From IMG/VR virus record IMGVR_UViG_3300045988_095445: a stretch of 64,000 bases of DNA. One strand, 5' to 3'. The translations under genes and the position numbers were made by a program. This DNA is from a virus. The notes beneath the pieces are model-generated. The model had not been told where the DNA came from. It did not search any database and saw only the letters and a list, made by a program, of their open reading frames with translations. Positions 3,802-40,537 of the stretch are shown piece after piece. Within the stretch, counting starts at the first letter, position 1, and each line of letters opens with the position of its first letter.

Positions 3802-5427
3802 TTGTTAAAACGTCGATAGGAAGAAATAAGAGCTAAAGGTTTTGATCTACTAGATCGAGGTATTATTACTCGTTATCAATAGGAAGAAGATTTTTTGAAC
3901 TATGATACTGTTGATTATGCAAAAATGCGAGTTGGATTACGGTCTGTGGATGATGCGCTTATTAATCTAGGCACATATAAAAAGATAAATAGAAATTATG
4001 GAGATAAAAAGTTTGTATTAAATGCTATTTATAAGCATGATTACAAGACTTTAAGAGAGATTTCTAATTACTTTTATGAAAGTAGCGGTATTTATTATAG
4101 ATTATGTAAATATTTAGCCTTCTTATATAGATTTGATTGGTATATTACTCCATACACAGTAGATGCGTAGAAAGATAAAGATAAGCTATTGAAAGATTTT
4201 TCAAAGGTCTTACTTTACCTTGATAAATCTAGTGTGAAGAGAATGCTTGGAAATATATCATTAGATATTATTAAAGAAGGAGCTTATTATGGTGTAATTG
4301 TTGATTTTGGAGATAGATTTGCAATTTAGAAATTACCAGCTTCATATTGCAGAAGTAGATATTTCTAGGGCCCTAATCCAATAGTAGAATTAAATCTTTA
4401 GTTTTTTGACACTTATTTTGCCAATCCGCAATATAAAATCTAGATATTAAAGATTTTTCCACAGGATATTCAAAAGGCATATATTCTTTATAAACAGGGA
4501 AAATTAAAAGGGGATTATCCAGGTGATACTACTGTATGGTATCCACTAGATCCTAGTATTTCTGTAAAGTTTAGTCTAAATGATAATGAATTTCCTTTTC
4601 TAGCTGGGGTTATTCCTTCTATTATTGATTTGGATCAAGCACAAGAATTAGATCGTCAAAAGACAATGCAACAATTATTAAAAGTTATTATTTAGAAGTT
4701 GCCTCTTGATAAAAATGGAGATTTGATTTTTGATGTTGATGAAGCAAGGGATATTCATAATAATGCTGTAACTATGTTAAAACGAGCTATTGGTGTAGAT
4801 GTATTAACAACTTTTGCAGATATTGAAAAAATTGATACAAAAGATAATAATTCTAATACAACGACAGACGATTTGGAAAAAGTTGAACGTACAGTTTATA
4901 ATAACTCAGGTGTAACTCATAATTTGTTTAATGCAGATGGCAATATTGCAGTTACAAATTCTATTTTGACAGATGAATCTAGCGTAAGAGATATTCCTCT
5001 CATGTTTACAGATTTATTAAATCGAGTAGTAGAGAAATTTAATCGCAAAAATCATTATGAGTTTAGAGCGGAAATGTTAGAAACTACCTAGTTTAATTAT
5101 AAAGAGTTATCTAAATTATATAAAGAGCACGCTCAACTGGGTTATTCTAAGATGTTGCCGCAGATTGCTTTAGGTCACTCTCAATCAAGTATATTAGCTA
5201 CATTAACATTTGAGAACGAAGTATTGAATTTAGCAGAAATTATGATTCCGCCTATGAGTTCTAATACCAGAAGCGGAAAAGATTTGGGTAATAATAATTA
5301 GTCATCTAAAACTAATTCTTAGAATAAGTAGACAAGTTCAACTAATACTGATGGAGCCGGCAGGCCCAAAAAAGAAGATGGCGAAAAGTCAGATAAGACA
5401 ATAGCTAATCAAGAAAGTTCGTCATAA
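3802..5427 (+). CDS. portal protein (putative)
   Basis: TTG start at 3802 after GGAGGTGA. It is 541 aa and continuous through many TAGs, and ORF-track fragments 3895..4170 and 4699..5091 share its frame. It follows the terminase. The charged C-terminal tail is typical of portals. Confidence 0.5.
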
Positions 5428-6666: not shown

Positions 6667-7356
6667 ATGGCTAAGAGTTCTAAAAGATTAGGTAATGCCA
6701 CTTTTGTCCAGTATGGATATGGTCAAGTGGAGCCAAACCATCTTTCCGCTCCAAGAAATGGTCAAGTATATGCTCAGCTTCCCGCAGCTAGCACTATTGA
6801 GATTCTTGAGAACGGTCAATTTGTAAAGTATAATTATGCAAAAGGCGTATGCGATTTTAGTACAGAAGCTACTTCTGGCGCTTGGATGATGGTGTTTAAT
6901 GAAGTAAAGATTTATAGAGATCGCGAAACTGACGCTGATTTTGCTATGATTAAGGATAATTATAATGCTCGTGTATATAGTCCAATTGGACAAACAGTTT
7001 CTACACTTGCTACAATAAGTGATTATACCGGAGAAGCTGTACGCGAAGGTAGTGATGTAGCATATAAGAAAAATATGGAGACATTTACTTATCCTGCATT
7101 GATGCCAGAAGGAACTAAAATGGTACCTCGCGTAATTAAGATTAGTATTGGTGATATTTGGACTACTAATACCATTAAGGCTAATGCTGGAGAACTTGCA
7201 GTAGGCAATCGTCTAAAGATTGATACTGATGGATATTTAACTAAAGATACTGAAACTTCTGCTAAAGGTGGAGATTTAGATCCTATCTTTGTAGTAGTAA
7301 AAGTGTATACTATGCCAGATCTTCAACCTGGTGTAAAAGTACAGCGTGTAGGTTAA
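6667..7356 (+). CDS. head protein, TAG-free. It may be a decoration or second capsid protein.
   Basis: Intact ORF with a strong SD (AAGGAGGATTAAAGA ATG). It has no TAG codons and lies between scaffold and capsid genes. Confidence 0.45.
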   Translation: MAKSSKRLGNATFVQYGYGQVEPNHLSAPRNGQVYAQLPAASTIEILENGQFVKYNYAKGVCDFSTEATSGAWMMVFNEVKIYRDRETDADFAMIKDNYNARVYSPIGQTVSTLATISDYTGEAVREGSDVAYKKNMETFTYPALMPEGTKMVPRVIKISIGDIWTTNTIKANAGELAVGNRLKIDTDGYLTKDTETSAKGGDLDPIFVVVKVYTMPDLQPGVKVQRVG

Positions 7357-7375
7357 TTGGAAGGAGTGAAGAAGA

Positions 7376-8428
7376 ATGTTAGATAAAGCTAATTTACTTA
7401 GTTTAATGAAAACTGTCGCTAATGCAAATCCTTCTGGTACCTATAGCTATCAAGGAGAGTCTTTTAGCTATGACGCTTTAAATACCACTTTGCGTAATGA
7501 GCTAAATGAATTTGTTGGCACAGATGAACTTTATAGAGAAAATAAAAATACTCTATTCTCTTTAATTGAGCAGACTATGGATGAAGTTGTTCCTAATCGT
7601 TTACTCAATTCTTATGGCAATTTTGCTGAGATTAGAACTTTCGCACAAGGCGACAAGCCTGTATTTACTCGTAGAACTGGACTTACTCGCGCTAAGCAAT
7701 TCATTACTCGTGTGGGGCTTGCTGGTGTGTATGAGACCTTTAAGCTTGGTTCTGAGAGCTTCGAAGTTGGAACAAGCGCCATTGGTGGAGCTGCTCGTAT
7801 CGGATTTGAGGAGTTCCTTGATGGAAGAGTAAACTTTGCAGAACTTACTCAAATTGTAACAGAGGGTATGCAAGAGCTTATTTATAGAGAGATTGCTCAA
7901 GCTCTTATGGGTTCTATCAATCAGCTTCCCGCGGCAAACCGTTGTGCTGTTGCTGGTTTTGACGAACCAACTATGGATTATCTTGTAAATACTGCTACTG
8001 CTTATGGTCAACCAACTATTTATTGCACTCGTGAGTTTGCAGTAAAAATGATTCCAGATAATGATGCTTGGATTTCTGACAATATGAGAGATTAGTATTG
8101 GGGAACTGGTTATCTTGCAAATTACAAGGGAACTAGAGTGGTAATTCTACCTCAAACTCTTGAAGATGAGACTAACTCCAAAAAGATGATTGATCCAGGT
8201 TATGCTTGGATTATTCCTGGTGGAGCTGAGAGCCGTCCTGTAAAAGTTGCTTTTGAGGGTACTACCCACGTGCGCGAACGCGATGATAATGACGACTGGT
8301 CTCGTGATATTCAGGTTTACCGTAAGGTTGGTGTCGGTGTAATGATGGCGAATAACATCTTCTCTTATGTTGATACTGAACTTCAAGGCGAGCTTGATAA
8401 TACTAACCCAAATCCAAATAATGGTTAA
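7376..8428 (+). CDS. major capsid protein (putative)
   Basis: ORFs 7376..8095 and 8138..8428 are in the same frame, joined by a single TAG at 8096-8098. It is about 350 aa and is followed by a strong terminator. Position and size fit an HK97-fold major capsid protein. Confidence 0.5.
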
Positions 8429-8434
8429 TTGACA

Positions 8435-8466
8435 GGGGATAGGGAAATATCCCTATCCCCTTTTAT
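8435..8466 (+). terminator. rho-independent terminator after the capsid gene
   Basis: Hairpin GGGGATAGGGAAATATCCCTATCCCC followed by TTTTATTT. Confidence 0.7.
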
Positions 8467-8492
8467 TTATTGAGAAAAAGGAGATAAAAATT

Positions 8493-9026
8493 ATGAAAAA
8501 TAGTTGCACTGTTTATAATAAGAGCGCAGGTCGTGTTGTATATAGATTGCCTGAATTGGGCGTGCGCCGTATGTTTTACCCTGGAGAACACAAGGAACTT
8601 GAAGTATCTGAACTAGAAAAGCTAGTACAAACGCCTGGAGGCCGCAAATTAATTTATAATTACTTACTTGTAGATGATAGAGAGATTGTTGAATATCTTA
8701 TTAATGGTAGGGTTGAACCAGAGTATTGGATGAAAGAAGAAGAGATTGATTCTTGGATGAATACGTGTTCTTTAGATGAATTTAAGGATGCTCTTGATTT
8801 TGCTCCAGAAGGCACTAAAGATCTGATTAAATCCCATGCTATTTCTCTTCCTTTAAATGATATGTCTAAAAGAGATGCTTTGGAAAAACAATTAGGATTT
8901 AATGTTACTAAAGCATTAGAATTAACAGCAGATGATAAAAAGAATCCTAAGGAAGAGAAACCTGTAAGAAGAGTGTCAACTACAAGTGAGGATGCTCCAA
9001 AACGCAGAGTAGCTATTTCTGATTGA
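8493..9026 (+). CDS. hypothetical virion-module protein, TAG-free
   Basis: Intact 177-aa ORF with an SD. It has no TAG codons. Confidence 0.5.
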   Translation: MKNSCTVYNKSAGRVVYRLPELGVRRMFYPGEHKELEVSELEKLVQTPGGRKLIYNYLLVDDREIVEYLINGRVEPEYWMKEEEIDSWMNTCSLDEFKDALDFAPEGTKDLIKSHAISLPLNDMSKRDALEKQLGFNVTKALELTADDKKNPKEEKPVRRVSTTSEDAPKRRVAISD

Positions 9027-9045
9027 TATAAGGGAGGTTATAGCC

Positions 9046-9588
9046 ATGGATAATAAGAAATATCCAATTTAGGGCGATCCGACCCCCTTTGAAGAAATTT
9101 ATGATAGATTTTTTGGCAAAATTACTGATGATATGTATATGGAATGGACATAGGAAGATACTGAAAAAGATTTGTATAACATCCTAATGGATGCACTTCC
9201 TGGTTTTGAGTTCCCTCGTTTTCCATTATACAGTTTTACCAATATAGAAAATAATGATGAAGAGACTGGAATAGCAACTATTATTCCAGCCTTTTCTGCA
9301 CATTTAACGATAGAAGAAATAAATATTCTTGCTATTCTAATGTATAATACTTGGTTACAACGCCAGGTGGCTTCAATAGAATAGACGAGAATGAAATATT
9401 CTGGAACAGATTTTAAAATGACTTCCTAGGCCAATCATTTAGCCAAATTAATAGAGTTGAAAAAGGAAGCAGAACGTCAAAGTCATCATATGCAGCGTCT
9501 CTATAAAAGAAGAAAACTAATTGATAATCAAGGCTCTTATAAATCAAACTGGTCAACATTAAGAGAGATGAGTGTTTTTGATGGATAA
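9046..9588 (+). CDS. hypothetical protein (head-tail connector region)
   Basis: SD AAGGGAGG then ATG at 9046. It is 180 aa through 4 TAGs. ORF-track fragment 9172..9384 is in frame. Confidence 0.45.
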
Positions 9589-9889
9589 ATATGATATTAA
9601 TTTCCCATTAGAAACAAAAGAGTAGGATTTAAAGAGATTGATTAATTAGTTATGGAAGTTAATTCCAATGAGAGAGAATAATGAAGACTGGGTAAATCAT
9701 TTGAATGTAATAACAGAAGAAATTAGTGGATTAGTTAAAATGTATAAAGATAGAGTTGAGGGACTTATTTTATTGTCTAAACTGGAAGGGTTATCTTCAA
9801 ATGTCTGTAATGATTTTATGATTTATCGAAAAACAGTCTTTAGATGTATTGATTTGTTGGCGTAGGTGATTAGAGATGACGAATCTTGA
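9581..9889 (+). CDS. hypothetical protein
   Basis: ATG at 9581 overlaps the previous stop. It is 102 aa with in-frame TAGs and ends at TGA. ORF-track fragment 9668..9865 is in frame. Confidence 0.4.
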
Positions 9890-10868
9890 ATTAATGCGAA
9901 AAAGATTTGAATGGTAGGGTGGTATTCACTAGGAAGATAGAATGATCAAAGATAAATGGAGAACTCTTTAGAAAGCATTATTATATTCTTATCAAGCCTG
10001 TACTGTTCAATTAGTCTAGAAGTCAACCTAGGTTTTAGATGCAACGTTAGATGCTGTTGATCCAGATATGAATATTTATCCTATGTGTCGTGCGCTTATT
10101 AATCCAGATAAAGTGAAACAGGACTATGATGATAAGATAATCTCCATAGATCATATTAATCAATATGAGCCTGGAGATGTCTTTGAGTGGAAAAAAACTG
10201 GCACTCATTGGATAATTTATCTTGAAGAAATAACTGAGGACGCTTATTTTAGAGGGGAAATAAGACGTTGTAGATATAGAATTAAGTTTAAAGATTAGGA
10301 AGGGAATTGGTGTTAGACTTGGGCTGCGATTCGAGGTCCAGTTGAAACCCAAATCGAGTCTATTTAGAAGAATCAAGAAAGATTGGATAAACCTAATCTT
10401 AGCTTAAACATACTTATGCCAAGAAATGAAAAAACTATTCATGCTTTTGATAGATATAGTGAATTTTTGTTCGCTGGAAGATGTTGGAAAGTTTAGGCTC
10501 CAGATGATATAAGTATGAAGAATGTAATTGAAGTGAGTGCAGAAGAAGATTATATAAATAGAGATACTGATGATATAGAAAATAGTATGAAAGATGGTTT
10601 AATATTCGAACCAGAAGATCCTACTCCAAATAGCGGGATTATGGGAGAGACTTTTATTAAACCAATGATAGAAGAATCTTATTCTGTAGAAGAAGCTAAT
10701 GGAGCTTGGTCAATATTAGAAAAGAATGTTCCTGTAACTTTATGTCCAAATGGAAATAAATCTGTTTAGTTGGTGTGGAATAAAACTACTCATGGTCAAT
10801 TCACTCTAGTATGGAAGAAGGATAATACTGTACTGGAAAAAGTTATTGTAGTAGAATCTTTATTTTAA
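9876..10868 (+). CDS. hypothetical structural protein (about 330 aa)
   Basis: ORF-track fragments 10068..10298 and 10515..10769 are in one frame, which is continuous from ATG at 9876 to TAA at 10866-10868 through about 12 TAGs. Confidence 0.4.
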
Positions 10869-10883
10869 GGAGAGTGAATTGAA

Positions 10884-11420
10884 ATGAAAAAAAATACTTA
10901 TGAGTATCCTAAATCTAGTTTGTTAGGTATGTAGAAAGATGCTTCTCTGATTATGGAAAGAATACTTTCTAATTAGAATGTTTTGAAATTATTAACTTAT
11001 AATACTAGAGATTGGAAAAGTAAACCGACCGTTACAGGAGATATGATAAAGGAAATGATTGATACTAAGTAGATTTCTGCTGTTCCTAAGATAAAGGTTG
11101 ATAGACCAGAAAAATCTTATTTAAGATTGATTTATGGCACTATGGTTAGAAATTCTACAAATCCTGAATATAGAGATAATACATTTGGTATTGATATTAT
11201 TTGTCATTATGATAATTGGGATTTGGGAGATTATGATTTACGACCTTATCGAATTGCGGGAGAGATAGATTCAATGCTTGATGGAACTCATTTAACGGGT
11301 ATAGGAGAGCTAGAATTTGTATCAGCTACGCCATATATATATGATGAAGAATTTGCTGGTTTGTCTCTAACATATCTTGCTATTCGCGGAAATGAAGATA
11401 AGGTAAATCCGCTTGCTTGA
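10884..11420 (+). CDS. hypothetical protein (neck or tail-completion region)
   Basis: SD GGAGAG then ATG at 10884. It is 178 aa. ORF-track fragment 11127..11420 is in frame. There are 3 in-frame TAGs. Confidence 0.4.
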
Positions 11421-11436
11421 TTATAGATTAGCTTTA

Positions 11437-12162
11437 ATGGCCGGAATTGATATTCCCATTCCTGAATTACAACTTACTATTCACGTTCCCGTCATTAAAG
11501 AGATAGCTCTTATGGGAGAGACAAAATTTTTTATGGCAGTTCAATATTTATGTTTAGATAAAGAATCATTAATATAGGACGAAACTCTTTTATCATCATT
11601 AACTAATTTTCAAGTATTGATGAAGGTGTTAGAATAGTCACAGGATAAAGATAAAAAAAATGCTGTTATTATGCTACTTACATTATTATTTCCTGATTAT
11701 ATACCAGTAATAACTAGAAATTCAATAATTTTAACTAAGCAAGGAGAAAATTAGCCTTTGTTAATAGATGATAATAACTTTGATATTTTTCAAAGCGTAC
11801 TAAAAGAGATTTTGTGTGTAAACAGTCTATTTTAGGGAAATAATGTTATCTATAATCCAGCTAATGACCGAGCTAAAGAAATTGCTGAAAAGTTAATGCG
11901 CGGTAGACGAAAAGTAGCAGAAATCAAAAGCAAAGGAAATAATGAGAGTGTTCTAACACGCTATATATCTATCTTGACAATCGGATCTAATACAATGAGT
12001 TTAGAGGATTGCTTAAATCTAAATATGTTTTAGATATTTGATTTGATGGAAAGATATAATGCGTTTATTGAATGGGATGTTGACTTGCGGGTTCGTCTTG
12101 CGGGCGGCAAACCAGATAAACCAGTTGAATCATGGATGCGAGATATACATCCTAAAAATTAA
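11437..12162 (+). CDS. hypothetical protein
   Basis: ATG at 11437. It is 241 aa through about 6 TAGs, ending at TAA at 12160-12162. Confidence 0.35.
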
Positions 12163-12176
12163 GGAGGAATTAGCTC

Positions 12177-13568
12177 ATGCGTTTTGGTATTCGTGAGATT
12201 TGCGATGTAGTACTTCGTGCCAAAAGCTATCAGACTTTAGGTAATCGTAAGTTCTATAAAAATGAACCAGTTTTGTACTTTGACACTTTAAGAACCTCTA
12301 CTCTTGAAGGTGCTGCAACAACTGTATACGCACAGGGCGGACGTGGATATACTAGATTGATTGCTTGGGAAGGTGAGCGTACTCTAACATTTACAATGGA
12401 AGATGCTTTACTTTCTCCAGAGAGCTTCTCTATTCTTTCTGGTGCAGGTCTGCTTGATGCAACAAAAGAAGCTCCAATTTACGTTCATCAAACTTCTCAG
12501 GTAGAAGTTGAAACAGCTAACACTATCGTAATTCCTGATAAAGCCTGTTGGAATGGATTTGCAGATCATGAAAATGAAATGTATCATCGTTCTGCTGACA
12601 TTTTTGTAATGGTATTAGGAGATGATGGTCAAGTTAATGCTGAACCATGCATTCCTGTTTCTGTTTCTTATACAGAGGACGGAAAATCAACTTTAACTTG
12701 CTATTCTCATGCGGGAGTGCTCCCATCTGGTACTATCGTTTTAGTTGACTATTATGTAAAGCGCACTGGTGGTGCCCAGATGATTGAGATTACCGCTGAT
12801 AAGTTTGGCGGAAACTATTATCTTGAAGCTTCTACTCTATTCCGCCGTGAGAGCGATGGCGTAGATATGCCTGCTGAATTTATTATTCCTAACTGTAAGG
12901 TTCAGAGTAACTTCACATTCAGCATGGCTGCTAACGGTGATCCATCTACCTTTACATTCACAATGGACGCTTTCCCAGACTACACTAAGTTTGATCAAAC
13001 TCATAAAGTTCTTGCCGCTATTCAGGTAATTACTGATGAAACTGGAGAAACCGAAGGTTCTCGTGAGCCATGCTCTGAGAATGTTGGTACTTATGAGAGT
13101 GAAGCCGCTGATGTAACTGTAAATTTTGTTTCTAACAGTGCCACAGAGGCGGAACTTGATGTAACTGGTACTGTAACAGGAAAGGCTTATGATATTGAGG
13201 CTTATGGAGATACAATTCCAGAAGCCGCACAAATTAGCCTCCAAATTCCAGTAGAGAGCGATAGTACCAAGTATACTGTAGTAATAACTAACCCAGCATA
13301 TGAGAAATACTTCTCTACTGATGACCGTATTGAGGGCAATACAAAGACTCAAACCGTAGATGGCGCAGAATTGGCAGATGGCCTATTAGTAATTCTTACT
13401 AAGGAGAGTAATACAACTCCTATTACAGCTAAGATTACTAAGATTAACGGAGACTTTGAGAAGAGTTATACTATTAATAACAAGCTCAGTTTTGCAGAAA
13501 GCACAAGCACTTATTCTGGCGCAAAAATGCGCAATAAGTTAGTCTCTGTTAGCGACGACACCATTTAA
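12177..13568 (+). CDS. major tail protein (sheath- or tube-like), TAG-free
   Basis: Intact 463-aa ORF with SD AAGGAGGAATTAGCTC. It has no TAG codons and higher local GC. A strong terminator follows. An Ig-like C-terminal region is present. It lies upstream of the tape measure gene. Confidence 0.5.
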   Translation: MRFGIREICDVVLRAKSYQTLGNRKFYKNEPVLYFDTLRTSTLEGAATTVYAQGGRGYTRLIAWEGERTLTFTMEDALLSPESFSILSGAGLLDATKEAPIYVHQTSQVEVETANTIVIPDKACWNGFADHENEMYHRSADIFVMVLGDDGQVNAEPCIPVSVSYTEDGKSTLTCYSHAGVLPSGTIVLVDYYVKRTGGAQMIEITADKFGGNYYLEASTLFRRESDGVDMPAEFIIPNCKVQSNFTFSMAANGDPSTFTFTMDAFPDYTKFDQTHKVLAAIQVITDETGETEGSREPCSENVGTYESEAADVTVNFVSNSATEAELDVTGTVTGKAYDIEAYGDTIPEAAQISLQIPVESDSTKYTVVITNPAYEKYFSTDDRIEGNTKTQTVDGAELADGLLVILTKESNTTPITAKITKINGDFEKSYTINNKLSFAESTSTYSGAKMRNKLVSVSDDTI

Positions 13569-13574
13569 TTTTAA

Positions 13575-13609
13575 GGGAGGACTTAATAAAGTCCTCCCTT
13601 TTTCTTTTT
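13575..13609 (+). terminator. rho-independent terminator
   Basis: GGGAGGACTTAATAAAGTCCTCCC followed by TTTTTCTTTTT. Confidence 0.7.
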
Positions 13610-13627
13610 ATAAGGAGATATAGGAGT

Positions 13628-15070
13628 ATGGATGTTAATATTTATGATTATGTATAGCGTTGGTCTTTAAATTATATTGTTTATCATAGTAGTCATTTAA
13701 GAGAATACGGAGATGTAGAGTCCGCAAATATTCTCTTTAGTGGATAGTATCAAGAGGCAATGAGTAAAATGAAGACTGCGGGAATTGAGACTTAGATTGT
13801 ATCAATTCAAGAATAGATGCGGTCTAAAGGTCCAGTTGCCGCGAGTGGGTTAAGAGTTTTGAGTGATTTATAGATTGGTACCTTATTGGATTCTACTCTT
13901 GATTAGATCGCGGCAGGTATCAATGAAGGAATTGAATTAGCCGGTGGATAGGTAAATTTTGAGAATTATAATACTATATTACAATAGGCTGGCAATTTTA
14001 ATAATTTGTTGGCTAATGGGGCACCTGATATAAAAAGAGTTAATGATTTTTTTAGATTATTGATATAGGCTCTTATGAAAGCCAATATGATAAATGTCAG
14101 TGTTCTTGATGCTTTAACCTAGATAGGAAGATCGCTAATTGGTACTAGTTTTTAGATAGATAATTCTTAGCAGCACTATGTTATGTCCATTGAAGATGGG
14201 GATATCAATGTAGCGAAAGAAGTAATAGATTCGTTGAGTAGAGCGGTTTCAAGATTAAATGAAGGTGGAAGTGTAAACTCTAGATCTTTTGCTAATACAA
14301 TATCATATATTTTTAGAAAAGTTATTGGAAATTAGATTAGTCAAGCTATAGTCGCAGAAGGTATATCTATTGGAATTAATACTGCGGATAGTATATTAGA
14401 TACTGCTATTAAGTAGTCTGGTGGAAAATTAAAGTAGGTTGATAGAGGATAGAATACTACTTCTGACAATGGAAGTAGAGGTGCTGTTAAAGTTTTTAAT
14501 AATGATGTTTTTAATTTGTCAGTAACTAAGGGTAATCAAGTATTTAATATAGAAATTAGTGCTAATGTTAATGCAAAGTGGTAGAATAAAAAGAAATCTG
14601 CAAATAGAATTTAGGTTTTTTCAAATATGAATGTAGGGGATTATTTTTCTGGTTAGCCAGAAAAATATCTTGCTTATAATATGATTGCTCATAGATTCAC
14701 TGGATCAGATTTTGAAGAATCTTTTAATAATATTCGTGCATCGGTAGCCGCCTCATTTTTTAATGAATGGGTTTCTTCTGGCGGTCTAGCTTCTTCTAAA
14801 GGACATCTTGGTCAGTTACTTATTGTTAATGGTAAAGTTTTTTCTATTTAGCGTATTATAAATAATATTTGTGATGACATAGTTCGCAATAGCGGTCATG
14901 AAATAGTTTCTATTGGGGGAGAAAATTCTACTGGTAATAAGTGGTATGGAAATACTGGTCCAAATGTATTAGACGCTTTAACTCGTAGTAATATAGTTAA
15001 TGAAGTTATAAGTAAATTAACAATTTCTGCTACATTAAACAATAATATATTGTCTAAATACGCATATTAA
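13628..15070 (+). CDS. hypothetical tail-module protein, extremely TAG-rich (about 25 TAGs in 481 codons)
   Basis: ATG at 13628 after SD AAGGAGATATAGGAG. There is a single frame to TAA at 15068-15070 with no TAA or TGA inside. The Gln-rich translation reads coherently (QYQEAM, IQEQMRS, ILQQAGNF). Confidence 0.5.
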
Positions 15071-15074
15071 AAAC

Positions 15075-15103
15075 TTGACAATAGTTAATTTTTCTAGTAT
15101 AAT
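15075..15103 (+). promoter_or_regulatory. consensus sigma70-type promoter TTGACA-N17-TATAAT
   Basis: TTGACAatagttaatttttctagTATAAT sits about 30 nt upstream of the SD and ATG of 15136..15675. Confidence 0.55.
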
Positions 15104-15135
15104 AAAAATATAAATGAGATAAAGGAGTTTTTACA

Positions 15136-15675
15136 ATGAGTGAAATTACTTTTAAAGATTTGGGTTTGGAGCCTAAAATTAAATATACAGAAGTAAAAAT
15201 TGGAGAAGATAAGATTTTATCTGTGGTTAATTATCTTCCGATTGCAGATAAAACAAATCTTATTACTTTTGTCGCAGATTTAGCGATAGATGAGATGACT
15301 GGGTGTTTTAGTCCGGTAAGAGTAGAAACTTATTTTGCTATTGCTATTTGCAGATGGTATGGTGGAATTGTTTTTGAGCAAGAAGATGTGCATGAAAATA
15401 TTGCCAAAACTTATGATACACTAGAGACTAATGGTGTTATTGATGCAGTTAGAAGTGCTATTCCAGTAGATGAATTGTCTTTTATTGAAGACTTAGTTAG
15501 AGATACTTTAAGCGATATAGCAAGATATAATAACTCTGCCGCAGGCATTATCCAAATGATGAATAAAAATGCTTCTGGATTAGATACATATATTACTGAT
15601 ATAATGGAAAAAATTAAAAATGGTGAGAATCTTGAAACTTTATCAGTAATTAAAGATGTGGTTGGAAAAGATTAA
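15136..15675 (+). CDS. tail protein, TAG-free (tail tube or tape-measure chaperone candidate)
   Basis: Intact 179-aa ORF with its own consensus promoter and a downstream terminator. It lies immediately upstream of the tape measure gene. Confidence 0.45.
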   Translation: MSEITFKDLGLEPKIKYTEVKIGEDKILSVVNYLPIADKTNLITFVADLAIDEMTGCFSPVRVETYFAIAICRWYGGIVFEQEDVHENIAKTYDTLETNGVIDAVRSAIPVDELSFIEDLVRDTLSDIARYNNSAAGIIQMMNKNASGLDTYITDIMEKIKNGENLETLSVIKDVVGKD

Positions 15676-15712
15676 TAAATCTAATATAATTTACAAATTA
15701 GATAGAGAATTA

Positions 15713-15753
15713 AAAGGCTCTTGAGATATAATTCTCAAGAGCCTTATTTGTTT
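15713..15753 (+). terminator. rho-independent terminator
   Basis: AAGGCTCTTGAGATATAATTCTCAAGAGCCTT followed by ATTTGTTTT. Confidence 0.65.
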
Positions 15754-15780
15754 TATGGGTGATAAAGGAGGAAAAGGATT

Positions 15781-18700
15781 GTGGCTAATAATAGAAGATT
15801 AAATTATTAGATTGGGTTTGATGTTGATACTGCTGAACTTTACAGAGCAGTAAACGAGGCAGTTCAATCTTTAAATAAAATCAGTGCCGGTTCTAAAGTT
15901 ACAGCAGAATTGCGACAAGCTTCTTAGTCTGCGCTAGAGTTATCTACTTATATGCATTAGGCATTTAATCAAGGGACTGGAAAGTTAGATTTAGTAGCTT
16001 TTGAAAATAGTTTAAAATCTAGCGGAAGAACTCTTAAAGATTATGCCAACTCGTTAATTTCGATTGGTACCGAGGGGCAAAAGGCTTTTTTAAATGTAGC
16101 AACAGCGATTCAAAAAGCGGAGCTTCCAGCATTGCGCACTGGCAAAATATTTGATTAGTTATGGATTACTATGAAAAATACTATGAGATGGCAGATTACC
16201 TCCACCGCGTTAAATAGTTTTGTGGGAACCATAGAATCAGCTTATGGGTATGCACAAGATCTAAATGAATCATTAACAAATATTCGTATAGTTACTGAAA
16301 ATTCTGCGGAAGACATGGCTAAATTTGCTCAATAGGCAAATGAAGCAGCAAAAGCATTAAGTACAACTACTGTTAAATATAGTGATGCTGCTTTGATTTA
16401 TTATCAATAGGGTCTTACTGAATAGGAAGTTTTAGATAGAACTGAAACTACTATTAAAATGGCTAATGCCGCAGGAATTAGTGCATAGACCGCTTCGGAT
16501 CAGCTGACCGCAGTTTGGAACAACTTCTATGATGGAAGTAAGAGTCTTGAATATTATGCTGATGTAATGGTGCGTTTAGGCGCCGATACAGCGTCTAGCT
16601 CTGATGAAATTTCAGAAGGTATCCAACAATTTGCCTCTGTAGCAGATACAGTTGGATTAAGTTACGAATATGCTGCTTCTGCTCTTGCTACTGTCACTGC
16701 TACGACACGTGAGTCTGCTAATACAGTAGGTACAGCATTTAGAACTTTATTTGCTCGTATCCAAGGCTTAAATCTTGGAGAAACTCTCGATGATGGCACT
16801 ACATTAAATAAATATTCTAAAGCTCTTGAAAAAGTGGGTATTGATATTTTTGATGTTAATGGTGAGATTAAAACTATGGATACCTTACTTGATGAAATGG
16901 GTTCAAAATGGGAGACCTTATCTAATGACTAGTAGATTGCTTTGGCTTAGACCGTAGCCGGAGTTCGCCAATATACTCGTCTTATTGCACTTATGGATAA
17001 TTGGGATTTCTTTTAGGAGAATTTAGCTAGTGCTTATGGAGCAGAGGGATCTCTTTAGGAACAGGCAGATATTTATGCTGAATCTTGGGAAGCTGCTAGA
17101 GATAGAGTAAAAGCATCTGCTGAGGATATTTATGATAGTGTCATAAATCCAGATTTGTATATAAATGCAGATAATGTCTTAACTCCATTTTTATCTGGTA
17201 TTGCAGACGCCATTGATGCAATGGGAGGGTTAAATGGTATTTTAGCTAGTACCGCTTTGTTGATTAATGGGATTTATGGAAATAAGATTGCTGAATCAAT
17301 GCGTTCTATGGTGGCTAATATAAAAGTTCTATCTGGATTAGAGTAGAATAGAGCGAGAAATTTGTAGGCATCAGCGGCTGAGATAGCAACTCAATTAGGC
17401 TTAACAAACTCTATGTCTTAGGCTGAAAAAAATCTTTTTAATATTATGGTTGACTAGGCTAATATATAGGGCCAAATAAATAGTAACTACGACGCGATGG
17501 ATGCTAATGGTCGTAGATTAATTTAGACAGAACAGTTAAAATTAAGTATTTTGCAAGATTAGTTAAAGACATATTCTTAGTAGTAGATTTAGTCTAGGGA
17601 AAATGTATTAAATCTTAGAGATACTATTTATTTTAATATAGGAATAAAAGATGGCTGGCAAGAAGAAGTTAAAGCAGAAATAAATAAATTTAATAGTAGA
17701 AATAAAAGTAATCAAATTTAGTTAAATATAAGAGCTAATAGTAACCTTGATAAAATTTATAATGATGTTACTACTTAGTTAACTAGTTTAATTTAGCAAT
17801 CTACAAAACTTGATACAGTGTATCAAGAATTTAAAAAACTTGAAAGCGCTGGAACTGCGACTAGAGACAGCCTTCGTAATTTATTATCTAGTGTTACGGG
17901 CAAAGAACATAATTATGCTTAGATTGAATGGCTGACTTAGCAATTAGAGGGGTTAAAAAATTAGTCTCAAAATGCAAAATTGCAAATTCGTGAACTTGGG
18001 ACTATTTTATAGACTATGGGAGCCGATCCAAGAGTAGTTACTTCTTATATTAATGAATTAACAAAATTGGAGTCTGTTACTGCAAGAACAACTGAACAAG
18101 AGGCTCGATATTAGGAATTGTTAGCGAAGTTCCCTAGTGTAATTACAAAAGCATTAATACCAACGAGAGATTGGGCTACAATATTGGTTTAGGTTGGAAG
18201 TTCTCTTTCTAGTTTAACTATGATTATGAATGCTTTTTAGAGCATTGGAAGAATTTTTTCTGATGAAGATATGACTTCAACTGAAAGAATTGTAGCTTTG
18301 TTTACTTCTCTTGGTATGTTACTACCCTCTATTATTTCTGTTTATAAAACTTTAAATATGTTAACTACTGCTCATGCTGTTGCAGCAGCGGCGGACGCCG
18401 CGGCAACATCAGTAGAGGCTTTAGCGACAGAATAGCTTGCTATGGCGAAGCAGAAAGCCGCTATGGCTTCCGGCATCTTAACTGCTGCAATTATGGTAGC
18501 AATAATAGCGATTACTGCAATAACAAGTGCTATAAAAGCATAGCATGAAGCAACCTTGGCTGCTGCTTAGGCCTCTATTGATGCGGCAAATGCAAAAAAA
18601 GAAGAAGCACAAGCGAATAGAGAGTTAATTCAATCTACTCAAAATGCCTTATCTACTTATCAAGAAACTGGGGATGGAAAAGAAGAGTTAGATGATTTAA

Positions 18701-21700
18701 CTCGTTAGTTGGCTAAAGCGTATGGTTTAGAAGGCAGTGCATTAGCTAGACTAAGTGGATAGTATGAAGATTATAATAGTGTTTTAAAAGCTGCTCAAGA
18801 AGCTCAAAGAAGAGAACTTTAGGAAACTTTGTAGTCCCAAGAAGAAGCGTTACGTGCGAATGAAACTCTCATTCTTGAAACCGCGAGAGAGGGCGTGGGC
18901 CACGTATATTTTGGTGGAAATTATGAGGGGTCTTTTACTGGTTTTAATGATTTTTGGAATGGCACCGAAGAAGATACTGCATCTAATATTCTTCTCAATA
19001 ATGTGGACGCTTTATATAGTAGTTGGAATGACAATGTAATTGGCGGAAGAAGAAACTTAGCTTTTTCTATAGACCCAAATAATACAGAAGAATTAATTAA
19101 TTTTTATGATCAATTAAATAATGCTATTAATTTGATGAATAATAGCATGACTGTTTCGGAAAGAGGAGCATCTGGACTTTATAATGCTGCTGTTGAGTGG
19201 CGAGATAAAATGGAAGAGGTTGTCACTCAATATAAAGAAACTAAAGAGAGTATAAATGTTATTCGGGTATAGCTTGGAGAGTTTAATAATTAGACTATTA
19301 CCGATGATCAAGTATCAAGTTTAGCGTAGTATAAAATTTGGGTTAACGAAGTTACAGAGGCGCTCACTTCTGCTGGATATGAAGGCGAAGAATTAAACGA
19401 TATAATCAATGATTTAGTATCTACTTCTCTGAATCCTGATATTAGTGGCTTTAAAGATATTTATGACGCAATTTTAGAGGTTAAAGAATTAGTCAATGAT
19501 GAAGAATTAAAAAGTAATCTTGAATCTATTTTTACAGATGAAAATTATGATACTTCTGTATTAAATTTATTAAATTGGGGTGCTTTAACATAGGAGACTT
19601 TTTAGGATGCCTATGACAGTGCTAAAAAATATGCTGATGTTATTTCCGAAGTTAAAAACACAACAGAATCTTTAACTACTGCACAATCTGCCTTAGAAAC
19701 TCTTGGAGATAGAGATTTAGATCGAGAAGAATTAGAATCACTTTCTAAAACTGTTGATTGGGGAAATCAAGAAAAAGGAATTATTGATTTTAATTAGTTC
19801 CTTGCTATGACTTTAGTTGAACAATAGAGTTATTTATAGAGGATTATAAATGAGTCCTATTAGGCTGTCAATAATAGATTAATAGATTAGATTAGTGAAG
19901 CAAAAAAGAGAATAACTGAGCAATAGGATATTTTAAATCAATATAGCGATTCTGAATTAGAACATGCAGAAAAAGTTGTTTATGCTTGGGAACAAGTTCG
20001 AGAAGCGTATAATGATTATCAAGGTAGCTTAAATGGCGGAGAAGAATTTAATCTTGATAATTATACGATTGATTGGGATTTGTTAGGTGAAAATTTTGAT
20101 TGGGAATCTTTTAAAACCGAAACTGCGGATAACGTAGCTAGTGCATTTGAGTATGGGACAAAAGAAGCTCAAGATAAAATTGATACTGTAACTTTAGCAG
20201 AGTAGCTAATTAGTAGTTTATAGGATGATATAGATTCTAGCACAGCTTAGTTACAAATAAATGCAGAATTAAATTTTTAGAATCAATTAGATTAGATTGA
20301 AAATTCCGTTGACGGAATTGTAAGTGTATTCGATGCTATTTCTGATGGAGTAAGCTAGACTACCAATGAAGCTGGAGAACAAGTTTGGAGTTTTAGTAGA
20401 GAAGCAGCTAAGGCTATTGAATCTATCTATCCAGGTTTTATAGCTAACGCGGAATTATTAAGGGATGGTACATTTGCTTTAACAGATGAGATGTATCAAG
20501 CATTTTATAATAGTTCTTAGGGGCAATTAGCTGTTGATGCTGATACCAAATCTAATATGCTTCAAAATCTTATTTCTCTTTTAGAGGCTAAACGAGGAGA
20601 GGCTGAAGCTTCGCTTAAGATCGCTGATCAGCTAGCTTCTGGAGAATTAACTATAAACGAATTATCAGATGAGCAGAAGAGAACTTTATTAGCGGGATAT
20701 GTAAATGCTTAGAATCTTGCTAATGGAGAAATGTTAGATGATTAGGTCAATAGTTTAACCGCACAAGATACAAATTAGTAGACTTTATGGACTAATGTTA
20801 GCGAGTATTCTGCTTAGGGCGCGCAGAACATGAGTACTAATGTATAGTTAAATACTCAAAATGTTCTTGCTAATCTTGAAAAAATTAGAGATGCGGCATA
20901 TGCTACTGGAATTCAAGTATCTCAAATAGGAACTGATAATGTTACTAAGCAAGATTTTGATACTTCTGCTGTTTCTTTTGATAGTTCGGCTGCAACAACA
21001 ATAGATACGAGTAACGCTGATGATTTCTTAAATTCTTTAACTGCAAATTTAGATGTAGAACCTGTAACCGCAGACGATTTAAATATTTATGGTGATGCTA
21101 GTGAGGCACTTGAAGCTAAGCAATCTTAGGCAGTTGGAGAAGCGCTAAGGGCCATTTATTAGGGGAGTATTGATGGGTATAATGAGGCTATAGCAGCAGC
21201 AAAAATAGCCTAGAGCAAATTATTAGATTCTATTGATGGAGCTATAGAAGGGGTAAAGGGAAGTTCAAGTGGCGGAGATAATGAAGGCACTAAGTATGAC
21301 GAAGAAGATGAAAAGACTCTAAAGGATATTGAAGATAGATACCATGAAATAACTCGCGAAATTGAGAATTAGAACGATTTATTAGATGATATTGGAAATA
21401 ATATAGATAGAGCCTATGGCGCCAATAAACTTCAAGCATACTAGAGAGAACTTCAAGAATTAGAGAAATAGCAAGCTAATTATAACAAACTACTTAATGA
21501 AGCTGAAACTTATCTTACAAAAGACTAGGCAGATCTTCAAGGGTTGTTTAATAATTCTCTTATTTTTGATGAAAATGGAGAAATTGAAGGTTATCAAAGT
21601 GTTCTTCAATCTATAATAGATGATTATAATAATAATTTCTTGGCAGATTATAATGCTTTTTTAGTTACCTTTAGTAATCTTACTAAAGATGAATAGGAAG

Positions 21701-24507
21701 CTAGATAGGCAGAATATGATAGTTGGCAGTTACAAAAGGAAGCTGCTGATGAATTATTCCAAGCTCGTTAGGATGCTCTCGCCCAATATGAAGAAACTCT
21801 TGACAAAATTCAAGAAGTAAAGGATGAATAGGAAGAACTAGAGAGAAGCATCGCAGACAATAGATTGAGCTAGATTGAATATAAACTTGAAGTTGTAATA
21901 GAAATAAAAGATGCTAAAGATGCTGTTCGTGAATTAACTAAAAAGATTGCAGAATCATTTGGCGATGAATTAACTCATGGTATTGAAGTCGCTCGTATTG
22001 ATGAAAATAGTGTGAACGAAAATATAAAAATAATCAAGGATTATGAAGAAACACTTAAGAGTTATCAAGAAGAATTGGCTAACGCAACGGATGCAACCAA
22101 TATTGATGGAATTATAAGTAAAATATCTGATTTATAGGATAAAATAATTTCTACCGCAGAAGCTCTACTTGATTGGGTAGAAGGTCTTGAAGAAATGTTG
22201 CCAAATGCATTAGACGCTGCATCTGAAAGATTCGCTGAATTTACTGATCAACTTGACCATAATGAATCAGTTCTTGGACTTATAAAAGAATTGTATACAC
22301 TTTAGGGGGTTACATATAAAACCGAAGAAGGATTTGAATAGCTCCAAAAAGTAAGCGAAGAAACAATGAAAGCTCAAATAGCAAATGCGCAGTTAAATAA
22401 ATAGTGGTACGACGGTATTAAATAGGAACTTTTAGAAGCTTAGAGTGCGTTAGATGCGTTAGACGGCGATGAAACAGATCCGGCATATGATGGTTTAAAA
22501 GCTAATCGAGATGCATTATTAGAAGAATATAATGAAGCTCAATAGGCGATGTTAAGTTCCGCGCAAGCCGCTATGGAAACTGCACAAGAGATGTATACTT
22601 AGGCTATTGAAAGAGCCGTATACGAATTTGGATAGGCGGTTTCTGGCGGAGTTGGCTTAGATTTGCTACAAGACAAGTTCGATCATTATATTGAGCAAGA
22701 AGATAGATATTTAGATAAAGTAAATGAAGCATATGAAGTATCTTCTTGGTATAATAAACTTCAATAGGATATTGATAAAGCCACTAATTCTAAAATGAAA
22801 GATTAGTTGAAATAGTTACAAGAAGAAATTGATATTCGTAGAGAGAATAATACTTTATCTGAATATGATCTAGAAATTCTTGAAGCTAAGTATAATGTTC
22901 TTTAGGCTCAGATGGCTCTTGAAGATGCTCAAAATGCAAAGAATCAACTTAGATTAGTAAGAGATAGTCAAGGTAATTGGAATTATCAATATACCGCAGA
23001 TGCGAGTTAGATAGCAGATGCGGAATAGAATTTACTTGATGCAGAGAATGAATGGTATAATATAGCTAAACAATAGGTTGAAGATGTTACCGGAGAAATT
23101 ATTTCTACTTGGCAGGAATGTCAGGATAAAATAAAAGAGATTTATTCTGATATGACCTTGACTGATGAGGAAAGATCTGCCCGCGCGCAAGAAATCTATT
23201 CTTATTATACGCAGAAGGTTAAGGATCTAGAGAACGAAAAACAGATCGCTATTTAGGATATGACCGAAGCCGGTAATAAAGCCTTAATTGATATGGCTAT
23301 TGTTGCGGGAGACAAGGTAAGTGATCTAACTGGAATTACAAGTCAAGAAATTCAGGATATTATAGCCAACTCTGGCTCTAGTATTATTGATTTGTTATTA
23401 TCCGATAATGAATAGATTCAAGATATAGTTGGAAGTAATACAAAACTTATTGATTTATTTGATAATGTTTTTGCAAAAGATCTTGCTAATATGACTTCTA
23501 ATGCTGGAAATTTTGAAGATTTTCTATCTAAAGCCATGGACGAAGCAAGTGAAGCAATGGAAGATTATCAAACTACTGTCTCTGGAGTGGCTGATTAGAC
23601 TGGAACAAGCCTTGATGATTTAGAAGGTTATCTTGATGATGTTACAACTTCTACAGAGTTATGTTCTGATGCGGGATCAGAAGCTGTCACTTAGATGTTA
23701 GAATAGATAAGCACTATTCAAGATTTAAGTCAAGAATATTTAGACATGGCTGAATCAGTTAGAGAATATATAAGGGCTCTTGAGGAGGCTGCTAGAGCAG
23801 CTGGAAATACAATAGAAAGCGCTGGAGGAATAGATAAAGATGATTTACCTCCCGCTAATTCAGATCAATCTTCTGATAATAACTCTAGCAATAGTAATAG
23901 CGGATCTTCCAGTGGAGGGGCTGGAAGTGGCAATGGAATCCCAGAAGTAGGAGACGAAGTCATTTATACTGGTGGAACTTATTATCATGATTCTTATGGC
24001 ACAGATCCAGCAGGTAGACGTGGACCCGGTAAGAAAGTTAAAATAACTAATATAGCTAAAGGCAGACCATATCCGATTCATGTATAGTCTAATAATTCTG
24101 CATATGGCTGGTTAAAAGAAAGTCAAATAAGCGGATTTGATACAGGAGGTTATACTGGAGAATTTGATAATGCTAAATTAGCTTTCTTACACGAAAAAGA
24201 GTTAGTTTTAAATCAAGAAGATACGAAAAATATTCTCGCGGCGGTTTCTGCTATAAGAGCTTTTGAACCTAGTTTTATAGCTTCTATAGAGAAAGCGCTT
24301 GATGGAAATGCACTATCTATTTCTAATCTTATGGCATCAAGATTAGGATCTAATACTTAGATTACTCCAGCAGATAACACAGTTGAACCGTATATAAATA
24401 TTGAGCGAGTTGAGTTCCCAAATGCGACATCTTCTGATGAAATTCAAGATGCTATTCGTAGTTTAGCTGATGATGCTACTCAATGGGCAAATAGAAGAAA
24501 GGGATAA
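15781..24507 (+). CDS. tail tape measure protein (about 2909 aa)
   Basis: GTG start after AAAGGAGGAAAAGGATT. ORF-track fragments 16567.., 17155.., 18895.. and 23746.. are all in frame 1. Triplet reading is continuous to TAA at 24505-24507 with more than 100 in-frame TAGs and no TAA or TGA. The TMP core (EYYADVMVRLGADTASSSDEISEGIQQF..., around 16.5 kb), a hydrophobic TM segment around 18.2-18.5 kb, and long Q/E-rich coiled coils are present. Confidence 0.6.
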
Positions 24508-38241: not shown

Positions 38242-38881
38242 AGTTTAATTCAATAGCTTTTAATTTATCTATTGAATCAGCTTCGAATATCTAAGTTTTA
38301 TATTCTTGCATTAAATGATATTTGGGATATACCGCATTTGAAATAGCTAAACTTAGAGCGGATAATTGCTCTAAACTCCATGGCACACATTCTTCGTGTC
38401 GAGCGTGCCACTCAAGCGTAGGATTTTCTACTTCAGCCGCGAGAGCGACTTGATATTGATTGAGATTTAAGCTAATCTCAGACTGGTCCTCCTACGTAAT
38501 TCCATATTCTTTTCCATCAACCCAAGTTAGTGGGTGGGTAGCAAGATACTCTGCGAATAGTTTCTTGTTTTCCTCTTGTTTGTCATACTTTGCCTAATCT
38601 AAATCAGAAGTGAATGTTCCATCTTCTTGATTATATATTGAATAATTAGGAGTAACATCTGATGGAATTGTTTCTATCTCTAATACTTTTACAGCATTAG
38701 ATTGATTTAATACATCGGCTTTAATTAGAGTATAATGTGTATCTCCATTTGAGCCGATAACCCCAGTTCCCTCTTCTTCCTCGCAGGCAACGACAATACC
38801 ATTTGAGGATTGCAGTTTAATGTAACGTGCTTCTGAAAGAATATCAACTACTACATTCTCTCTATTTAATAGAATATACAT
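38219..38881 (-). CDS. hypothetical protein (about 220 aa)
   Basis: ORF 38594..38881 is extended through 3 in-frame TAGs to TAA at 38219-38221. Its start overlaps the RT stop (TAATG). Confidence 0.4.
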
Positions 38882-40407: not shown

Positions 40408-40504
40408 CCGGCGCCAGACCGTTGCTGTTGTTGTAGTTGTTGTTGTTCGCAGATCCATCGTTGTTGACATTGCAAACGTTGTTCGAGTTGTTGTAGTTAC
40501 GGGA
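40408..40504 (-). repeat. DGR template repeat (TR), 97 bp
   Basis: It is 97 bp, near-identical to 41131..41227. All 11 mismatches are A in this copy (coding/minus strand) versus N in the other copy. Confidence 0.75.
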
Positions 40505-40537
40505 CCGAAAGATACAGAACTTAACCGCAGAAAAATA

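Follow-up and report, generated by a model that had tools for sequence, protein, structure and literature searches.

The 64-kb window analysed here, the whole of a stretch of viral DNA from IMG/VR record IMGVR_UViG_3300045988_095445, comes from a gut siphophage that reads the amber codon TAG as glutamine (Gln), that is, in code 15. We find that this reassigned codon is nearly absent from three late genes: the major capsid protein (MCP) gene, the gene directly upstream of it and the probable major tail gene. The same three genes share a strong shift in synonymous codon use, and TAG use in the remaining late genes is graded along the same general axis of codon bias. We think it likely that the three genes were purged of TAG by ordinary selection for efficient translation, which would have removed other non-preferred codons at the same time.

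Under the standard code, the genes of the window, which is 33% G+C, are fragmented, and with TAG as a sense codon they become long. Open reading frames (ORFs) of at least 100 amino acids add up to 30.9 kb under code 11 and to 76.5 kb when TAG is sense, and the longest one lengthens from 1,046 to 2,914 codons. With TAG read through, the terminase, portal and tape measure genes are full length and match PHROG families. Our gene models allow only TAA and TGA as stops, so every model ends in one of these by construction, and they agree with the coordinates of an earlier note made on this DNA. That TAG encodes Gln is seen in alignments to nine relatives, where 314 of the 610 codons opposite window TAGs (51%) are CAA, CAG or TAG. 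The other codons at these positions encode E, S, K, N, R or D, the same spectrum as is found opposite CAA and CAG. In EF1, an Enterococcus phage that uses the standard code, CAA is the commonest partner of the window TAGs. The window also shows an early/late split, with TAG at 278 of 567 Gln codons in late genes (0.49) and at 64 of 330 in other genes (0.19).

For each gene, we counted in-frame TAG as a share of all Gln codons (TAG, CAA and CAG). In the 21 late genes that make up the background, TAG accounts for ~52% of Gln codons. The gene at 6667-7356 has no TAG among 8 Gln codons, the MCP gene (7376-8428) has one among 13, at 8093-8095, and the probable major tail gene (12177-13568) has none among 12. 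If 0.52 is taken as the expected share, TAG counts this low have probabilities of 0.003, 0.001 and 0.0001, respectively. Two smaller late genes, 8493-9026 and 15136-15675, are also free of TAG, with only two Gln codons each (0/2 in both), which gives the same probability as 0.23 for each. The 26 late genes together are heterogeneous in TAG versus CAA plus CAG (chi2 58, 25 degrees of freedom, p = 2e-4). Once these five focal genes are removed, no single outlier is left among the late genes (chi2 24, 20 degrees of freedom, p = 0.24), and outside the purged genes the TAG share spans 0.29-0.74. The earlier note had listed zero TAGs in the 6667, 8493, 12177 and 15136 genes and one in the MCP gene, and these counts are correct. 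Its broader claim of non-uniform TAG usage also survives conditioning on Gln content, in that the depletion in the three larger genes remains.

The other half of that claim, that neighboring genes are specially rich in TAG, falls away once Gln content is counted. The gene at 13628-15070, which lies between TAG-free genes, does carry TAG at 20 of 27 Gln codons. These are 20 TAGs in 480 codons (4.2%), not the roughly 25 previously given, and the share is marginally high (p = 0.017 uncorrected) but not an outlier after correction. The tape measure gene, said to hold more than 100 TAGs, holds 98 among 202 Gln codons when counted from the ATG at 15952, and 100 from the likelier GTG at 15781, which has a strong ribosome-binding site. 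Its TAG share of 0.49 equals the background, and 7.1% of its codons are Gln codons. Both genes are TAG-rich per codon mainly because they are Gln-rich.

TAG is not avoided in the focal genes as a mere trinucleotide. Out-of-frame TAG occurs at 0.021 per codon in these genes versus 0.026 in the background, and this normal density indicates that the depletion acts on the reading frame. We found no significant concentration of TAG towards the 5' ends of genes (p = 0.17), and the A-rich +4 context of TAG is the general first-base composition of codons. Rather than the one leaky stop in a defined context that marks a programmed read-through device, the window holds hundreds of dispersed TAGs.

The three purged genes differ from the other late genes in far more than their Gln codons. 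The synonymous share of CGT is 0.52 versus 0.14 (p = 5e-8), that of ATA 0.03 versus 0.31 (p = 4e-7) and that of AGA 0.27 versus 0.61, while AAG stands at 0.56 versus 0.26, GAG at 0.49 versus 0.25, CTT at 0.47 versus 0.22 and CAG at 0.36 versus 0.08, next to 0.03 versus 0.52 for TAG (p = 4e-9). Overall, CGT, AAG, GAG, CTT, GGT, GTA, ATT and CAG are raised and AGA, ATA, TTA, GGA, GTT, TCA and NCG codons are lowered, and the shifts are significant for Arg, Ile, Lys, Glu, Leu, Gly, Val, Gln, Asp, Asn, Phe, Cys and Ser. The three genes have a G+C content of 0.37-0.40 versus 0.29-0.35, and their G+C at third codon positions is 0.21-0.28 versus ~0.22. As the latter is barely raised and T or A is the last base of many preferred codons (ATT, CTT, GGT, GTA), the codon signature is not a G+C shift. 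Neither is the drop in TAG a third-base effect, since the G-ending codons GAG, AAG and CAG rise as TAG falls.

A principal component analysis of synonymous codon use, with the Gln codons left out, places these genes together. At the extreme end of the first component (PC1, 21% of variance) stand the gene at 46529-47434 (-1.08), the MCP gene (-1.03), the tail gene (-0.95) and the 6667 gene (-0.79). Among late genes, TAG share rises along PC1 (rho 0.86, p = 1e-7); a comparison of TAG use with codon adaptation was one of the checks proposed in the earlier note. The correlation persists without the three genes (rho 0.84, n = 17, p = 2e-5), so TAG use is graded along a general codon-bias axis. A simple NNC/NNT index showed no correlation with TAG share among the late genes (rho -0.08). 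Preferred codons were defined internally, and the tRNA set of the phage was seen in part only. A match to tRNAs is suggested, and suggested only, by phAss-1, a code-15 human-gut phage of ~135 kb in the proposed genus Phassvirus (Babkin et al. 2023, PMC10607447; GenBank OQ749652). Its tRNAs include those for CGY (anticodon ACG), AAG (CTT) and CAG (CTG).

The same pattern recurs across nine lineages with capsid identities of 52-97%, which are related, so that their counts are not fully independent. TAG makes up 0 of 118 Gln codons in the capsid family, 0 of 58 in the tail family of the relatives and 1 of 86 in the 6667 family. Other families of the late module show 44/171 (terminase), 41/193 (portal), 44/97 (11437) and 48/97 (13628). 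Taken lineage by lineage, the three families together hold 0-1 TAG in 19-38 Gln codons, with ATA near zero and CGY high, and the other late genes of the same lineages have TAG shares of 0.14-0.54. Turnover between TAG and CAA or CAG is fast elsewhere; a relative with 97% capsid identity has kept only 60 of 91 window TAGs. Given this turnover in other genes, the lasting absence of TAG implies purifying selection. The sole capsid TAG at 8093-8095 (plus strand) is CAG in all seven of the closest relatives (L001-L006 and L024); it is a young, tip-specific change from CAG to TAG. Together with the turnover, it indicates that TAG mutations arise in the purged genes and do not persist. Protein constraint that merely keeps ancestral CAA or CAG codons was considered and rejected, as terminase, although no less conserved than the capsid protein, carries TAG at the share given above, and the fast-evolving 6667 and 15136 families stay TAG-free.

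The recurrence also bears on chance, helped by low Gln content in short genes, which we regard as a scarcely credible explanation of the pattern as a whole. It suffices in the window for 8493-9026 and 15136-15675. For the former, the TAG-free state is not significant and, with so few Gln codons, uninformative, and the 8493 family does bear TAG in some lineages (4/49 in total, 3/7 in L012). For the three larger genes chance is refuted by the probabilities from the window alone, 1e-4 to 3e-3, and by zeros that recur in each of at least seven lineages; the 15136 family, too, remains at 0/30 across lineages.

Recent acquisition of the TAG-free late genes from standard-code phages would be another way to obtain genes of higher G+C and distinct codon use, and phage genomes are mosaic. 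We nevertheless hold it to be very improbable. In every lineage, as far out as 52% capsid identity, these genes keep their place in the gene order, lack TAG and show the codon bias, and between lineages they have diverged in parallel with the neighboring terminase and portal genes. Their orthologues in the standard-code outgroup share that gene order and are codon-biased too; in EF1 this is seen for both the capsid and the tail gene. The third-position composition described above does not fit a foreign source either, and ancient transfers would have equilibrated under the fast TAG turnover seen elsewhere.

The TAG-free genes are real genes and not non-coding stretches. Databases contain at least 7,991 homologues of the 6667 protein, which shows that the clade is widespread, and the others have conserved syntenic orthologues. 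When 25 kb of window sequence were compared by megablast with 50,697 GenBank phage records, no nucleotide match came up. Relatives were found by protein search, and IMG/VR holds many of them at 55-100% capsid identity.

We propose that the pattern could arise as follows. The phage would decode UAG as Gln with its own amber suppressor tRNA. As suppression would compete with host release factor 1 (RF1) and rely on one phage tRNA, each in-frame UAG would be slightly slow or leaky. AT-biased mutation of CAG to TAG would drive TAG towards about half of Gln codons, and for low-copy products selection would be too weak to resist this gain. The cost of a poor codon is expected to scale with the number of ribosomes crossing it, so that TAG would be removed from the mRNAs with the highest load, those of the capsid protein, of the gene just upstream and of the major tail protein. 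The same selection would strip ATA, AGA and TTA, making TAG the worst of the non-preferred codons rather than a tuned switch. We computed that the 100 TAGs of the tape measure gene would lower its yield to 37% at 1% termination per TAG, to 13% at 2% and to 0.6% at 5%. Such losses mean that late suppression must be efficient and the residual cost per codon small, which may be just the regime in which only the most translated genes get purged.

The predicted suppressor is present in a near-identical genome. A tRNA scan of the 64-kb window found no tRNA, and four contig-walking scans, together with tRNA scans of capsid loci and ~50 relatives, found none either. After these negative scans, we located a tRNA array through synteny with the tRNA and nicotinamide adenine dinucleotide (NAD) salvage region of phAss-1. 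It lies on contig IMGVR_UViG_3300045988_081499, which is 99.4% identical to the window across 18.4 kb. The array (L170:1173-3048) comprises Ser-TGA, the suppressor CTA, Leu-CAA and Cys-GCA, and sits upstream of an RNA-ligase-like gene and the NAD-salvage cluster, the arrangement found in phAss-1. The tRNA with anticodon CUA (L170:1914-1989; Rfam tRNA, 61 bits) is, from its sequence, a phage-encoded amber suppressor, for which charging with Gln is predicted. The anticodon arm of the phAss-1 suppressor matched two phAss-like contigs only. The strand that encodes the CUA tRNA also has, 440 nt upstream of it, a perfect promoter-like site of the extended -10 type, as a consensus match only. In the sister contig 084596, the 10 kb corresponding to the array (locus L168) contain no tRNA, and we found none in the ~110 kb examined of its 146 kb. 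The position or content of the tRNA array thus differs between the near-identical genomes 081499 and 084596.

The three purged genes lie in a plus-strand head-and-tail module (35-37,740) that includes the large terminase (1679-3424) and the portal (3925-5427), both matched in PHROG, and tail-tip genes that accompany a giant tape measure. The MCP is assigned by homology, with a match to phrog_4088 (E = 7e-61) and tblastn matches to annotated major capsid proteins of Bacillus phages; identity to the phAss-1 capsid protein is 52%. The probable major tail protein matches phrog_2729, 'virion structural protein' (E = 2e-55), and its gene is strongly biased (CGY 0.87, NNC 0.29, AAG 0.64). The 6667-7356 gene (plus strand) shows the same preferences (Arg CGY 0.67, Lys AAG 0.5). 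Its AlphaFold2 model is poor (mean confidence, pLDDT, of 52), and in Foldseek its three best matches, auxiliary capsid chains from Pam3, FCWL1 and T1, are not significant (E = 0.1-0.6). From these weak model-based matches, the product is probably a capsid decoration or cement protein. The products of the 6667, 8493, 13628 and 15136 genes match nothing in Pfam and, in PHROG, only families of unknown function, with no PHROG match for 13628-15070; PDB profile searches were empty for all four. The description of the TAG-free genes as abundant virion proteins therefore fits the capsid and tail genes by homology and the 6667 gene weakly, and it is unsupported for the 8493 and 15136 genes.

The module contains several transcription signals. 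A terminator-like hairpin with a 12-bp stem and a T run directly follows the MCP gene (8434-8461, plus strand), and L006, L007, L009, L013, L022, L026 and EF1 have at the same site a GC-rich hairpin and T run whose sequence differs. A second terminator-like hairpin directly follows the major tail gene (13573-13600, plus strand), with equivalents in L006, L013, L026 and EF1. A third, with a 13-bp stem, follows the 15136 gene (15714-15745, plus strand) and is kept in all six lineages examined. No such strong hairpin terminator directly follows the terminase gene, the portal gene or the TAG-rich genes. Upstream of 15136-15675 lies a promoter-like site of the sigma-70 type (15075-15103, plus strand) with a perfect TTGACA-17-TATAAT, which is conserved at 11-12 of 12 positions, at -57 to -62, in six lineages whose proteins are 31-88% identical; no conserved host-type promoter comparable to it was found upstream of the capsid, tail or other late genes. 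These terminators and the promoter divide the late region, which is therefore not one uniform operon. By these motifs, the TAG-free genes appear to end, or themselves to form, distinct transcription segments. Of the promoter/terminator units with which the earlier note had proposed to correlate TAG counts, terminators are found after the capsid, tail and 15136 genes, and a conserved promoter at 15136 only.

The two small TAG-free genes stand apart from the three purged ones, as neither has the optimal-codon signature. The 8493-9026 gene (plus strand) follows the capsid terminator. Its model overlaps that of the next gene, 8992-9588, by 35 nt, and translation of the latter may really begin at a second ATG, at ~9046; this would drop two of that gene's five TAGs and leave our conclusions unaffected. 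The 15136-15675 gene (plus strand, 179 amino acids) occupies the position of a tail assembly chaperone, and its AlphaFold2 model is confident (pLDDT 83) with no informative fold match. With its own promoter-like site and terminator-like hairpin, it has the appearance of an independent unit transcribed by host RNA polymerase, embedded between the tail gene and the tape measure gene. Its freedom from TAG probably follows an early/late timing logic and not translational optimisation. A tail-chaperone frameshift from 15136 into the tape measure gene was rejected, since a terminator, a ribosome-binding site and a GTG start lie between them. The tape measure gene itself (15781-24507, plus strand) encodes ~2,908 amino acids from a GTG start preceded by AAAGGAGG. 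This length implies an exceptionally long tail, and neither a G/GT-type frameshift nor a read-through arrangement precedes the gene.

The early/late split shows in the minus-strand replication module, which lies beyond the head-and-tail module and a diversity-generating retroelement. Its genes include, by Pfam, a DnaE-type polymerase (55111-58992), NrdD (52281-54524), an SF1 helicase, a dUTPase, RuvC and a RecJ-like protein. TAG makes up 1 of 53 Gln codons in DnaE, 2 of 33 in NrdD and 1 of 11 in the helicase gene, in agreement with the 0-2 TAGs reported before for most replication genes, and a small gene (54591-55136, minus strand) belongs to the same TAG-poor block. DnaE and NrdD sit near zero on PC1, without codon optimisation, and in relatives the genes of 52281-58992 carry 0-2 TAGs. 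Replication genes are thus TAG-poor regardless of codon bias. On the published view they would be translated before the suppressor accumulates, and the 15136-15675 gene probably avoids TAG for the same reason. The RuvC-like resolvase gene (49340-49819, minus strand; Pfam RuvC) departs from its surroundings, with TAG at 9 of 13 Gln codons and, in ten lineages, at 6-9 of 12-14. The co-oriented dUTPase gene upstream, which overlaps the start of RuvC, has 0/6 in the window and 0/5-0/6 in the ten lineages. From this pattern, RuvC is the best local candidate for suppressor-dependent gating to late infection.

Such genes speak for a tuned valve or timer, in which selection would set the number of TAGs per gene for amount or timing through the level of suppressor. 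TAG-free genes would then be those made early or in the largest amounts, and TAG-rich ones such as the tape measure gene would be throttled. As an account of the whole pattern we consider it unlikely. It accommodates the scarcity of TAG in replication genes of any codon bias, which has been published for other recoded phages, a RuvC gene that stays TAG-rich in the same operon as a TAG-free dUTPase gene, and a TAG-free 15136 gene with a conserved host-type promoter. Termination at 2-5% per codon would, moreover, bring tape measure yield roughly to the low copy need of the virion. Within the late module, however, TAG share tracks codon bias, with no gene-specific set point and no outlier beyond the focal set, and differences per codon mostly reflect Gln content. 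TAGs are not clustered at the beginnings of genes, the cheapest position for a valve, and their positions turn over freely between lineages, those of RuvC included. The three purged late genes lack conserved host-type promoters and so give no sign of early expression, and terminators already vary transcription along the region. The suggestion in the earlier note of a stoichiometry valve inside one operon is therefore not supported for the late module, where TAG share follows codon bias and the region is split. Its suggestion of timing keeps some support outside the three purged late genes, from the replication genes, RuvC and the 15136 cassette. Selection against TAG in the most highly translated mRNAs, which it also raised, suits the 6667, MCP and major tail genes and does not extend to 8493 and 15136.

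Ordinary selection for efficient translation thus remains our preferred explanation for the three purged genes, and several points weigh against it. We infer the high expression of these genes from function, from virion copy number (hundreds of copies per virion), from codon bias and from downstream terminators, and the role of the 6667 product is suggested by non-significant fold matches to a predicted model. The codons that we call optimal are optimal by internal definition and not by reference to the host tRNA pool, and the lineages compared are related, which makes their counts less than fully independent. The 8493-9026 and 15136-15675 genes are TAG-free without codon optimisation, so that one explanation does not cover all five genes. 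Finally, codon bias and TAG avoidance could both follow from another shared property, such as the poisoning of assembly by truncated subunits.

This last idea, selection against truncated self-assembling subunits of the capsid, its decoration and the tail tube, independent of translation efficiency, seems to us a rather improbable one. The clearly purged late genes do encode, or probably encode, polymerising virion proteins, and the purge, near absolute at 0/118, 0/58 and 1/86, exceeds the avoidance of other non-preferred codons in several lineages. But it explains neither the concordant optimisation of Arg, Ile, Lys, Glu, Leu, Gly and Val codons nor the gradient in TAG use among the remaining late genes. 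The genes for portal, tape measure and tail-tip proteins, which are assembled as well, carry TAG at the background share, and the 46529-47434 gene has the same pattern as the purged genes without evidence that its product polymerises.

That gene, outside the head-and-tail module, has the most extreme PC1 value in the window (NNC 0.37, CGY 0.82). It lies on the plus strand and encodes 301 amino acids, rich in Gly, Asn, Gln and Cys and with a hydrophobic segment, that match phrog_16490, a family of unknown function. TAG accounts for 1 of its 26 Gln codons, and relatives hold 0-2 TAGs per 19-26 Gln codons. Judging from this codon usage, the gene is probably very highly expressed. The adjoining gene (47463-47885, plus strand) has 0/6 and matches only a PHROG family of unknown function. 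By contrast with the purged genes, the TAG-rich 13628-15070 gene (plus strand) lies at +0.37 on PC1.

The window holds other features of note. The diversity-generating retroelement (38881-42751, minus strand) comprises a reverse transcriptase gene at 38881-40098 (Pfam RVT_1, E = 1e-16), a template repeat at 40405-40507 and a variable repeat at 41128-41230, the latter at the 3' end of the gene at 41114-42751, whose product has Big_3 and DUF6273 domains. All differences between the two 103-nt repeats are at template adenines. Near the retroelement and tail-fibre-like genes, a 158-amino-acid protein (44776-45252, plus strand) begins with what resembles, by eye, the catalytic domain of a serine recombinase or invertase. 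On contig 084596 (L117:3112-4853), a lysozyme-like gene of 469 amino acids with 9 TAGs is followed by a gene for a 111-amino-acid membrane protein with none. This pair is a possible lysis cassette and, by analogy, recalls the recoded lysis enzymes of Borges et al. (10.1101/2021.08.26.457843).

Stop-codon recoding in gut phages is usually treated as a timer that turns late and lysis genes on or off. To this the locus adds a graded layer within the late module, in which genes with stronger codon optimisation make less use of the reassigned codon, down to zero in capsid and tail genes across a widespread clade. Somewhat speculatively, the TAG share of Gln codons may be a quantitative read-out of translation load, available from sequence alone, in every stop-recoded phage. 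If so, amber suppression would be costly throughout infection and the code switch never complete. Heavily made proteins, whether major virion proteins or of the 46529-47434 type, could then be found in uncultured recoded phages by the absence of TAG, and genes that are conservedly TAG-rich in TAG-poor operons, as RuvC is, would mark products gated late. If the relation is general, a cost of suppression per codon would be visible to selection, which bears on whether codes evolve by neutral capture or through regulation, and the combination of TAG-free and codon-optimised would serve as an annotation flag for major virion proteins.

We regard the finding as an incremental refinement within known recoding and not as a new mechanism. 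TAG-recoded gut phages have been described with a standard-code early block and a code-15 late block (Ivanova 2014; Yutin 2021, PMC7886860; Borges et al., 10.1101/2021.08.26.457843; Peters 2022, PMC9523058). The phage of the window has in common with them the reading of TAG as Gln, the enrichment of TAG in structural genes and its scarcity in replication genes, a suppressor tRNA and low G+C. The published phages are crAss-like, Lak and Agate phages, whereas this is a long-tailed siphophage of the phAss-1/SPbeta-like assemblage. What sets its signal apart from the published early/late split is that TAG is avoided within the late module itself, by major virion genes, and that this avoidance goes with codon optimisation. 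In the recoded-phage literature cited here, which is limited and no proof of novelty, we found no mention of TAG avoidance in capsid or major tail genes or of a link to codon optimisation. Borges et al. examined lysis genes and a tail tube for TAG preference and integrases for avoidance, with lysis genes coming out as enriched and integrases as depleted, and the word 'capsid' is absent from their preprint (10.1101/2021.08.26.457843). RuvC in its TAG-poor operon resembles their case of an intron endonuclease. In crAss-like phages, capsid genes containing TAG served Yutin et al. as a marker of recoding (PMC7886860).

The closest described recoded relative is phAss-1, in which the capsid orthologue and the upstream 6667-family gene together have TAG at 0 of 19 Gln codons; the stretch of phAss-1 analysed did not yield the major tail orthologue. 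Its CTA-anticodon suppressor is part of a tRNA array beside NAD-salvage genes (PMC10607447; OQ749652). phAss-1 has 36 tRNAs versus the handful seen for relatives of the window phage. The phAss-1 paper lists TAG-interrupted ORFs and draws no link to expression or codon bias (PMC10607447). Named Phassvirus members are 82.7-86.4% identical in nucleotides, and the window has no nucleotide match to phAss-1. With this and the capsid protein identity given above, sequence comparison places the two phages in the same broad assemblage and not in the same genus.

Beyond recoded phages, the SPbeta-like Enterococcus phages EF1, H1 and VRE9 have a capsid protein ~36% identical to that of the window, a syntenic head-tail module and a giant tape measure. 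As in the window, their capsid and tail genes are codon-biased and followed by terminators. Unlike the window, they use the standard code, and their late genes are without in-frame TAG. A parallel outside viruses is found in ciliates, in which reassigned stop codons are under-used in highly expressed genes (PMC10553269). In both cases non-preferred codons drop as expression rises, which in the phage is deduced from codon bias and function, and the reassigned codon is among the non-preferred ones. The ciliate cell has an adapted termination factor, whereas in the phage a virus-supplied tRNA would have to compete with an intact host release factor.

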